A model generated the notes under the pieces. It saw nothing but the letters and a program-made list of their open reading frames with translations, did no database searches and had not been told where the DNA came from. A program made the position numbers and the translations under genes. From IMG/VR virus record IMGVR_UViG_2547132270_000002: a stretch of DNA of 6,341 nucleotides; one strand, given 5' to 3'. This document shows positions 107 to 5,474 of the stretch, piece after piece; position 1 is the first letter of the stretch; the number at the start of each line of letters is the position of its first letter. The DNA is from a virus (taxonomy: Duplodnaviria; Heunggongvirae; Uroviricota; Caudoviricetes).

Positions 107-160
107 GAGAGCCACTTTCACAACGGCTCTCCATTACAAAGCCCATCTACTGGTGGGCTT
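107..160. other. Two adjacent perfect stem-loops of unknown function
   Basis: Seen in sequence: gagagcc (107-113) pairs with ggctctc (125-131) around an 11-nt loop; aagcccatc (139-147) pairs with g-tgggctt (152-160), 9 bp including one G-U, around a 4-nt loop. No U-tract follows on either strand. Confidence 0.45.
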
Positions 161-274
161 GATAATGGCTTATACCCTACACGGGATAACTTAACTGATA
201 TCCCTTTTAACGGATAAAGGTGTTCAAGCCTGACACATCATGCGCTGTATCGTCGCTGTATTCCCGCATTAACC

Positions 275-475
275 ATGACCGTAGCCCGATGGGGAACTCC
301 TCTGCGCGAGTGTGCGGAAATAATCAAAAACGATGCACACCGGGTTTTTACCGCGCTAATGATTCGCGGGTTTGTCCCTCATGCTCGCCAGTCCTGTGCG
401 AGGGTGGAAGAAACAGGGCATGTATTCAGGAGCGTGCGACCACGGTCGCACGGTATATTTGTCAGGAGGTTGTGA
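275..475 (+). CDS. Hypothetical small basic protein (66 aa); weakly supported
   Basis: ATG at 275, TGA at 473-475 overlapping the next ATG in a TGATG arrangement. About 12 K/R against 5 D/E by my count. No recognisable SD upstream, and a second frame (220-585) is also open over the same DNA, so the frame call is uncertain. Confidence 0.25.
   Translation: MTVARWGTPLRECAEIIKNDAHRVFTALMIRGFVPHARQSCARVEETGHVFRSVRPRSHGIFVRRL
433..452. other. Perfect GC-rich palindrome cgtgcgacc-ac-ggtcgcacg (hairpin or operator-like dyad)
   Basis: Seen in sequence: 433-441 is the exact reverse complement of 444-452. It sits 11 nt upstream of the AGGAGG at 464-469 and is followed by the U-rich stretch gtatattt. 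Confidence 0.5.
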
Positions 476-585
476 TGAAAGAGTCGCAGAAATTTAATTC
501 AATAATGGAACGATTCTGTTCTCCTGAGCGAGAGGCTTACAATATGCATTCATTGAACGCCTGTTGTAATATCGCCAAACATTAA
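475..585 (+). CDS. Hypothetical small protein (36 aa) with a strong ribosome-binding site
   Basis: ATG at 475 preceded by AGGAGG (464-469) with a 5-nt spacer; TAA at 583-585. Product MKESQKFNSIMERFCSPEREAYNMHSLNACCNIAKH. I recognise no homologue. Confidence 0.3.
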   Translation: MKESQKFNSIMERFCSPEREAYNMHSLNACCNIAKH

Positions 586-717
586 TCAGGTGCACGAGAT
601 GTCGGCTAATACTGACCCTGACGAAATGTGGCGCTGCTTTAATCTGAAAGATGGTGCAGACGACCTGTAGTTCGCATCCATTCCTGATTACCCTATTCAA
701 GTTGATGAGACAGAAAC

Positions 718-963
718 ATGACAGCTGCTAAAGAGCAGATTGAATATGAGCTAAATGTATTCTTCGCGTCCGCCCTTGGTGATGTGTTTAAAAGTTGCCG
801 ACTGGCTGAAAGCGTATTGGATTACCAGATCTCTACTGTTAGTTTTCCAACGGAAAAAAACGCCTGGCTGGAGCTAGGTGAATTACCCGTGATTATCGAG
901 TTGTCTAACGGACGTCGCTTTGAGATTAGTGCGTCTGAATGGTTGCAAATCACACCGCTTTAA
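718..963 (+). CDS. Hypothetical acidic protein (81 aa) immediately upstream of cos; accessory (moron) position
   Basis: ATG at 718 with a weak SD-like GAGA 7 nt upstream; TAA at 961-963. Protein-like composition with 12 D/E against 6 K/R, no transmembrane-like segment. Same orientation as the late and head genes. Not recognised from memory. Confidence 0.55.
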   Translation: MTAAKEQIEYELNVFFASALGDVFKSCRLAESVLDYQISTVSFPTEKNAWLELGELPVIIELSNGRRFEISASEWLQITPL

Positions 964-1038
964 ATTAAGCCCGCAGCCCACCTTGGCTACTGGCATTCGC
1001 TAGTAGCTGGGTCCTTTCCAGCGATCCGGCAGGCTACG

Positions 1039-1050
1039 GGGCGGCGACCT
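1039..1050 (+). other. cosN: cosN 12-nt cohesive-end sequence GGGCGGCGACCT
   Basis: Exact match to the lambda 5' cohesive end as I recall it, preceded by ...TACG as at the lambda right end. Nicks are expected at 1038/1039 on the top strand and 1050/1051 on the bottom strand. Confidence 0.9.
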
Positions 1051-1090
1051 CGCGGGTTTTCGCTATTTATGAAAATTTTCCGGTTTAAGG

Positions 1091-1227: not shown

Positions 1228-1747
1228 ATGGAAGTCAACAAAAAGCAGCTGGCTGACATTTTCGGTGCGAGTATCCGTACCATTCAGAACTGGCAGGAAC
1301 AGGGAATGCCCGTTCTGCGAGGCGGTGGCAAGGGTAATGAGGTGCTTTATGACTCTGCCGCCGTTATAAAATGGTATGCCGAAAGGGATGCTGAAATTGA
1401 GAACGAAAAGCTGCGCCGGGAAGTTGAAGAACTGCGGCAGGCCAGTGAGGCAGATCTCCAGCCAGGGACTATTGAGTACGAACGCCATCGACTTACGCGT
1501 GCGCAGGCCGACGCACAGGAGCTGAAAAATGCCAGAGACTCCGCAGAAGTGGTGGAAACCGCATTCTGTACTTTCGTGCTGTCGCGGATCGCAGGTGAAA
1601 TTGCCAGTATTCTCGACGGGATCCCCCTGTCGGTGCAGCGGCGTTTTCCGGAACTGGAAAACCGACATGTTGATTTCCTGAAACGGGATATCATCAAAGC
1701 CATGAACAAAGCAGCCGCGCTGGATGAACTGATACCGGGGTTGCTGA

Positions 1748-1773
<26 letters not shown>
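1228..1773 (+). CDS. nu1: Terminase small subunit gpNu1 (181 aa)
   Basis: ATG at 1228, TAA at 1771-1773. The protein MEVNKKQLADIFGASIRTIQNWQEQGMPVLRGGGKGNEV... matches lambda gpNu1 as I recall it, including the N-terminal winged-HTH region and K35 (AAG at 1330-1332). Sits directly downstream of cosB. Confidence 0.97.

Positions 1774-5454
<3,681 letters not shown>

Positions 5455-5474
<20 letters not shown>

Follow-up and report, generated by a model that had tools for sequence, protein, structure and literature searches.

An 81-codon open reading frame (ORF) at positions 718-963 of a 6,341-nucleotide stretch of DNA (hereafter, the window) from the tailed phage record IMGVR_UViG_2547132270_000002 (IMG/VR; Caudoviricetes) is almost certainly a real, mobile and dispensable accessory gene. 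The window is a lambda-type packaging region, in which the cosN 12-mer GGGCGGCGACCT (1039-1050) is followed by Nu1, A (1748-3673), W (3670-3876) and B (3873-5474), all encoded on the same strand as the ORF. An initial annotation, made from the DNA letters, had described an ATG-initiated frame ending 75 bp before cosN, with an 81-residue product of net charge about -6, and recomputation confirmed every one of these values (TAA stop; net charge of -6, counting K+R-D-E; isoelectric point, pI, 4.40; 75 nt between the last base of the stop codon and cosN). The same annotation had placed the ORF in the orientation of the head genes. This is true of the window and also of two annotated prophages (L001 and L002; the loci that we compared carry L numbers), where ninG and Q, then the holin, endolysin and spanin genes, and then the head genes are all co-oriented with the 81-aa gene.

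Longer antisense ORFs are numerous in the window, and a length of 81 codons is not significant by itself. Because length is uninformative here, the question of a chance ORF has to be decided by comparative evidence. We recovered homologues with 62-74% protein identity from metagenomic and genomic contigs and compared their DNA with that of the window gene. The ratio of nonsynonymous to synonymous rates (dN/dS, Nei-Gojobori) was 0.13-0.25, both for the window gene against these copies and for the copies against one another, with dS near or past saturation in the most distant pair, and the excess of synonymous changes was significant (Fisher p 1e-5 to 1e-16). Summed over all pairs, differences at the first, second and third codon positions numbered 636, 413 and 1246, and frame +1 was the sole stop-free frame of the six across all nine ungapped members. 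Protein length stays at 79-87 aa down to 38% identity. The Prokaryotic Genome Annotation Pipeline (PGAP) already calls the coding sequence in two complete E. coli genomes (WP_000122986.1, hypothetical protein), and some 92 contigs, from E. coli, E. albertii and E. marmotae, encode exactly the window protein, in each case labelled 'hypothetical'. From dN/dS, codon-position bias and the unique open frame, ORF 718-963 is a genuine protein-coding gene kept by purifying selection. This agrees with its earlier description as well formed and protein-like, and selection is clear across the orthologues, where the initial annotation had allowed that conservation might be absent.

Could the ORF nonetheless be a chance or decaying frame with no functional gene behind it? 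The Shine-Dalgarno sequence of the window is weak, and a frameshifted, truncated 52-aa variant (P0010) is present in 6 contigs, both of which would suit such an explanation. However, strong purifying selection over 38-98% identity, a fixed protein length and a unique open frame argue against it, and we regard it as highly improbable. A purine-rich stretch lies at an equal distance from the start codon in every orthologue (for example, GAGGTGAG in L004 and GAGGTAGAG in L029). As for P0010, it indicates that the gene is occasionally lost as a pseudogene.

The family to which the protein belongs is small. Among 5.8 billion protein clusters, a word-indexed search picked out 10, an exhaustive hidden Markov model (HMM) search of 1.84 billion representatives found three further distant relatives at ~40% identity, and after two more profile iterations the family closed at about 18 clusters, none of which is annotated or contains a fusion. 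Two weak repeat-protein matches in the HMM search (P0014 and P0015) were set aside as low-complexity or tetratricopeptide repeat (TPR) noise. The named hosts are Escherichia, Enterobacter (soli, asburiae and ludwigii) and Edwardsiella tarda, together with a few metagenomic contigs. DNA of the gene is present in 2 of 5,426 complete E. coli genomes and in seven IMG/VR contigs, and tblastn found no match in 50,697 phage records or 72,556 plasmids. The initial annotation had considered that the protein might fall into a characterised family of mundane function, but no model in Pfam, PHROG, NCBIfam or PADLOC matches it or any of 17 family members, and searches of the PDB with the single sequence and with the profile returned noise (E 0.5 or worse). 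Our literature search found no paper naming the accession or the peptide motifs.

Every member of the family is acidic, with a net charge of -6 to -9 and a pI of 4.1-4.65. The 81-aa protein has a grand average of hydropathy (GRAVY) of about 0.1, no hydrophobic segment and no signal-like N-terminus, and is therefore expected to be soluble and presumably cytoplasmic. AlphaFold2 returned a mean predicted local distance difference test (pLDDT) score of 86.6 and a predicted template modelling (pTM) score of 0.74 from an 11-sequence alignment, and 90.7 and 0.79 from 17 sequences. In the predicted fold, a long N-terminal helix (residues 2-23) runs into a strand (24-29) and a short helix (35-38), followed by a small antiparallel sheet in the C-terminal part (strands 51-54, 58-62, 67-70 and 76-78). 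Invariant residues cluster at the helix-strand junction (G21 and D22) and in the C-terminal sheet and loop (E61, N64-G65, F68 and A72-S73-E74-W75); Q77, I78 and T79 are nearly invariant, and the N-terminal helix is variable. On this model, we expect a soluble alpha/beta protein of 9 kDa in the cytoplasm, with its N-terminal helix packed against a small sheet and the invariant residues at the surface. The structural comparison that the initial annotation had suggested thus starts from a confident model and ends with no Foldseek neighbour: the best match in BFVD has an E of 0.02, to unnamed proteins, and the best among all PDB chains an E of 0.38, with no structural relative. The family is undescribed, an orphan by sequence as well as by predicted fold.

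One specific homology had been put forward earlier, to YlcI and YnfO (DUF3950) of the E. coli K-12 cryptic prophages. What speaks for this idea is positional analogy, in that these genes also lie near a Nu1 or noh gene. Yet none of the 17 family members has a match to DUF3950 or any other Pfam model at E<=1, BLASTP gives E=38 for YnfO and reports nothing for YlcI, and the family HMM scores both at an E of about 1. Furthermore, YlcI and YnfO are basic, and in E. coli K-12 they are transcribed opposite to noh (nohD and nohA). Pfam, BLASTP, HMM, charge and strand refute the lead, and the chance that the gene is a homologue of YlcI/YnfO is vanishingly small. Direct BLASTP and family HMM comparisons with YlcI, YnfO, YbcW/lambda p79 and lambda p78 all gave an E of 0.3 or worse, and homology to each was rejected. 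YlcI/YnfO and YbcV/YdfO (DUF1398) do share the slot of the 81-aa gene, from the lysis arm to cos/Nu1, in DLP12, Qin and many lambdoid phages, but they differ from it in their unrelated sequence and opposite strand, and YlcI/YnfO also in being basic. They are alternative cargo of the slot and not homologues of the 81-aa protein.

We counted about 12 independent genomic contexts, with neighbours annotated by precomputed Pfam and PHROG matches (Table 1). In nine of the 12 lineages, the 81-aa gene has the lysis arm on one side and, directly downstream, the small-terminase gene; across lineages, it adjoins five small-terminase types. The remaining three, all of them distant members (L010, L026/27 and L028), have it within the head-tail module, and its place differs between L009 and L028, although both have the DUF6260/DUF7370 type of head module. 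By blastn, window positions 702-1008 match L003 7985-8291 at 76%, and positions 730-1008 match L004 at 79%; in both cases the flanks are without homology. The gene, its ribosome-binding site and the terminator hairpin that follows it thus constitute a mobile cassette of about 300 bp, found on at least 12 backbones. In lambdoid phages with the window's flanks, the same slot holds YbcV (DUF1398) and YlcI-like genes on the opposite strand, Bor, or nothing, which bears out the initial view of an accessory hot spot between lysis genes and cos. As to conservation across lambdoid prophages, which had also been raised, the slot is shared, whereas the gene itself is absent from the flank-sharing lambdoid phage records. 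Because phages sharing its flanks are without it, the gene is dispensable, and the comparison of loci shows that the variable slot contains horizontally mobile cargo and not a gene of the morphogenetic core.

These contexts also bear on the possibility that the product serves the phage itself, as a non-essential helper of packaging, cos cleavage or head-tail joining, or as a minor virion or ejected protein. The gene is always found in late operons, upstream of the small terminase in most lineages and among adaptor, closure and tail-completion genes in the three others, as might be expected for such a function. However, the five small-terminase families that adjoin it are unrelated, which makes a specific packaging partner unlikely, and its place is not constant even within one type of head module. 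In lambda-like phages whose flanks resemble those of this slot, cos and the beginning of Nu1 included, the gene is missing; it has its own terminator, and in L010 it lies between glycosyltransferase morons and not between structural genes. Neither the fixed position nor the universal presence per module type of a core virion or packaging gene is seen, given L009 and L028 and the absence of the gene from lambda and flank-sharing lambdoids. A role internal to the phage is, in our judgement, decidedly unlikely. The glycosyltransferases of L010 (phrog_1579 and phrog_854, classed in PHROGs as moron/host takeover) form with the 81-aa gene a three-gene accessory island in the head module (L010 4950-7312).

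The ends of the cassette are informative about how the gene may be expressed. In L003, L004 and L006, a homologous hairpin, GCCACTGGCATxCGCTGGTGGC, is followed by six to seven T residues and was scored as an intrinsic terminator. In the window, the stem is kept and the T-run is gone; from base 1009 onwards, its place is taken by the last 30 bp of lambda, with the cosQ region. Because the lambda homology begins at base 1009, the cassette abuts the cos region precisely, and the lambda right-end stretch opens with GGGTCCT, which we take to be cosQ. Strong terminators of differing sequence directly follow the stop codon in L007/8/17, L010, L025, L026 and L028, and this private terminator is present even where the gene sits within an essential structural operon. 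GC content is 0.43-0.45 across 481-960 vs 0.53-0.56 in the terminase genes (Nu1/A). Upstream of the gene, a consensus-based scan found no sigma-70-like promoter above shuffle expectation in 13 loci (the window and 12 others), although a scan by consensus could miss weak or activator-dependent promoters, and Rfam has no family for the region. Because the genes from Q to the head are co-oriented, late co-transcription is the simplest explanation, and the gene is presumably transcribed within the Q-antiterminated late transcript.

In several of these traits the cassette resembles the morons of temperate phages, which are recognised as added DNA relative to related phages, with deviating GC, their own promoter and terminator, and expression from the repressed prophage (PMC3594210). 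Like morons in the Juhala/Hendrix sense, such as HK97 gene 15 and lambda bor and lom (PMC3594210), it is extra DNA between late-operon modules, has a lower GC than its flanks and, in most lineages, a terminator of its own, and has spread horizontally over unrelated backbones. Unlike them, it has no promoter recognisable in the consensus scan, its product is soluble and acidic rather than a membrane protein or lipoprotein, and in the window the T-run is lost. The locus is a moron-like accessory cassette rather than a certified moron.

A classical moron would work for the lysogen, from a weak or non-canonical prophage promoter and with a terminator shielding the late genes, and its product could, for example, exclude or abort superinfecting phages or satellites. 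That gene and terminator move as a unit, even in essential late operons, is consistent with such a role, as are the insulating terminator-like hairpins upstream and the low GC. In addition, a terminator is without effect on Q-modified polymerase, and its retention hints at transcription by unmodified polymerase. Against this stand the 13 loci without a recognisable promoter, intergenic spacers of just 38-52 nt in L026 and L010, and the defective terminator of the window. The solubility of the protein (GRAVY about 0.1) also sets it apart, since known exclusion morons such as HK97 gp15 are membrane proteins. We therefore consider service to the lysogen unlikely.

We favour a different reading. 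The cassette has entered the late operons of temperate Enterobacterales phages, in the window at the exact junction of the lysis arm with the lambda right-end homology; it would have no promoter of its own, and Q-modified RNA polymerase would transcribe it along with the late genes. The hairpin at its 3' end would act as a terminator for unmodified polymerase, or as a stabiliser of the mRNA 3' end. With its invariant C-terminal sheet and 'ASEW' loop, the product would bind another macromolecule and block it stoichiometrically; stoichiometric binding is proposed because the protein is too small and featureless for an enzyme. On balance, it seems somewhat probable that the 81-aa protein is a binder or inhibitor of a factor of the host or of a rival element. 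The likeliest class of target would be a component of host anti-phage immunity that acts, or is triggered, late in infection. We put forward a specific anti-defence function, and with it the favoured statement as a whole, as a tentative possibility that has a real chance of being correct but that we would not presume.

Several observations are consistent with an anti-defence function. A small protein in a variable accessory region of a mobile element shows a generic trait of anti-defence genes, which are typically small and sometimes clustered (PMC11370490). The 81-aa protein resembles small anti-defence proteins (Acb2/Tad1 sponges, anti-CRISPR proteins, or Acrs, and Ocr-type mimics) in being small, acidic, dispensable and encoded in a variable slot, and one of its lineages lies near an Acb2/Tad1-hairpin gene. 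The latter is found in L003 and L004, 0.7 and 0.3 kb upstream, respectively, with one gene between, and its Pfam match is above the curated cut-off in both (E 5e-18 and 2e-17). In L010, both neighbours of the gene are glycosyltransferases of the moron/host-takeover class.

Other observations weigh against it. L003 and L004 are related to each other, and the Acb2-like neighbour thus represents one lineage of ~12. In the AntiDefenseFinder study, 17.8% of known phage systems had another within 1 kb and about two-thirds stood alone (PMC11370490); because this base rate of co-localisation is low, guilt by association is weak here. Searches of PADLOC, PDB and BFVD related the 81-aa protein to no known anti-defence protein, either by homology or by fold. 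It does not match the PF24729 hairpin domain or show fold similarity to the solved Acb2/Tad1 structures, and neither its charge density nor its fold matches the DNA-mimic inhibitors of the Ocr, ArdA or Ugi type; a charge of -6 over 81 residues is only moderately acidic, far from the DNA mimics. The gene sits in late operons, whereas many anti-defence proteins are made early, and its preference for terminase-proximal sites, together with its presence in the connector region, could mean a role in virion assembly. Finally, the alignments behind the AlphaFold models are shallow (11 and 17 sequences).

A binder of this kind need not act on immunity. The product could take part in host takeover by inhibiting a housekeeping protein, such as a protease, nuclease, division protein or stress regulator, and thereby aid late development or burst. 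All structural matches are below significance, however, and the extreme rarity of the family fits arms-race cargo better than a generally useful function. We judge this alternative to be just as unlikely as a classical moron.

Comparison of the loci also revealed a recurrent element, which we call a framed hairpin: ATTACA, a variable GC-rich stem of 8-10 bp, a loop, the complementary stem, and (T)GATAAT. Without exception, the copies lie on the strand of the late genes and at the borders of cassettes or modules in the lysis-to-terminase arm; in L003, L004, L007, L008 and L017, the hairpin directly follows the last lysis-arm gene. Phages PhiR70_1 and Kati have copies as well. The frame is fixed while the inner stems show complete covariation, and among nine copies compensatory changes were found in 3 of 17 alifold pairs. 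A blastn search also placed the hairpin in 27 phage records that do not carry the 81-aa gene, among them phi80, cdtI, phiP27, mEp390, Edwardsiella EPP-1 and Klebsiella prophages, mostly unannotated and often near the right genome end. It has no Rfam family, and lambda's right arm contains no copy. The framed hairpin may serve in transcription termination or RNA processing, or it may be a boundary for recombination. The broadest version of our proposal, that the gene founds a new family, possibly with a new fold, of immune inhibitors or late host-factor blockers, carried by a promoter-less cassette that has spread perhaps via framed hairpins as exchange points, remains rather doubtful.

Table 1. 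Features of the window, copies of the framed hairpin in other loci, and neighbours of the 81-aa gene across lineages.
Feature	Position or locus	Strand	Basis or remark
Mobile cassette, block common to otherwise unrelated phage backbones	702-1008	+	blastn
Gene for 81-aa acidic protein, cassette payload	718-963, including stop	+	ORF call, purifying selection, WP_000122986.1-type annotation
Weak Shine-Dalgarno-like GAGA, 7 nt 5' of ATG	707-710	+	Sequence inspection
Stem-loop GCTACTGGC/GCTAGTAGC, terminator remnant, T-run lost	986-1007	+	Inverted repeat I6; homologous hairpins
Lambda right-end homology and cosN 12-mer, abutting cassette	1009-1050	+	blastn, 1009-1038 = lambda 48473-48502
Nu1 small terminase subunit, first gene past cos	1228-1773	+	Annotated terminase small subunit in L001, L002
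Decayed small ORF, MSANTDPDEMWRCFNLKDGADDL-stop-FASIPDYPIQVDETET-stop, its TGA overlapping the ATG of the 81-aa gene as ATGA	599-721	+	Comparison with L006, L016/L018
Well-formed framed hairpin ATTACAAAGCCCATCTACTGGTGGGCTTGATAAT	133-166	+	Precisely where inter-phage homology starts
Degenerate framed hairpin; conserved form precedes the gene in most lineages	537-569	+	Comparison of loci
Terminator-like hairpin CGTGCGACC..GGTCGCACG, perfect 9-bp stem, T-rich tail	433-452	+	Ends conserved block 131-452
Framed hairpin copies, L003-L008	L003 7276-7310; L004 1303-1337; L006 7712-7745; L007/L008 7891-7925		
Framed hairpin copies, L012-L023	L012 5343-5377; L015 5411-5448; L017 5891-5925; L022 1502-1535; L023 1503-1540		
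Framed hairpin copies, L029	L029 208-242, 575-610		Both sides of 81-aa gene
Nu1/GpA terminase	Window, L001/2, L011-16, L018		
Terminase 68% identical, same cos	L013		
DUF1441/GpA	Enterobacter L006		
HNH+Terminase_4/TerL	L003; Edwardsiella L007/L008/L017		
Terminase_2/3	L009		
Sf6-type small terminase	L025		
Unclassified packaging module	L029		
Gene between two glycosyltransferase genes	L010		Past capsid gene, before Ad1 adaptor
Gene follows phrog_797 gene	L026/27, L028		L027 and L028 contigs end shortly past the gene
Gene also precedes tail-completion/Neck1 and tail-terminator genes	L026		

The DNA immediately upstream of the cassette payload contains the remains of another small ORF (Table 1), whose DNA is 72-85% conserved with Enterobacter L006; the codons at which its frame is disrupted differ between the window, L006 and L016/L018. 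The E. coli copies have a 15-nt deletion, and no locus has an intact copy. We rejected an obligate upstream partner gene at this position, the ORF being broken in every copy and absent from other lineages. A 36-aa ATG ORF at 475-585 was likewise set aside as probably no gene, because it overlies the degenerate framed hairpin, which is palindromic, and has tblastn matches on both strands. Further upstream, parts of the ~320-bp block 131-452 are common to many lambdoid and Stx-converting records among the 392 that match a query of positions 1-1230; there they are mostly unannotated, or labelled 'hypothetical protein' or 'terminator'. Window positions 241-347 match the lambda bor-p78 intergenic region. 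The first 100 positions of the window hold the 3' end of a small co-oriented hypothetical gene (WP_000187850.1-like). Of 5,426 complete E. coli genomes, 18 contain this gene, and at least one of the 18 has a pre-terminase slot without the 81-aa gene.

On the other side of the cassette, the IMG/VR contig L013 (1-770) equals window 314-1083 at 99.9% identity and continues into the diverged terminase listed in Table 1. The switch past window position 1083 puts a sharp recombination breakpoint inside cosB, just 3' of cosN. A long inverted repeat at 1142-1209, between cosN and Nu1 (AAAGAAAGGAAACGACAG...CTGTCGTTTCCTTTCT), presumably falls in the cosB region by its position, and its sub-threshold microRNA (miRNA) matches in Rfam are spurious. 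In L003 (8407-9060) and L006 (8408-9277), which have different backbones, the gene directly 3' of the cassette comes from the same uncharacterised families, phrog_29765/13555. These have a marginal Phage_Tail_Tip Pfam match (24 bits, cut-off 22), an odd assignment for a site just before the terminase.

Should the 81-aa gene prove to have no phenotype, it would be one more orphan small ORF among the many in phage accessory regions. Whatever its function, a promoter-less unit of gene and terminator can move among at least five types of packaging module and into head-tail modules, and the locus reveals a conserved, covarying hairpin that delimits cassettes in the lysis-to-cos arm of many temperate enterobacterial phages. 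Were the protein to inhibit host immunity or a late-acting factor, it would represent a new anti-defence family without detectable relatives in sequence or structure, and its 81 residues would provide a compact probe for the targeted pathway.

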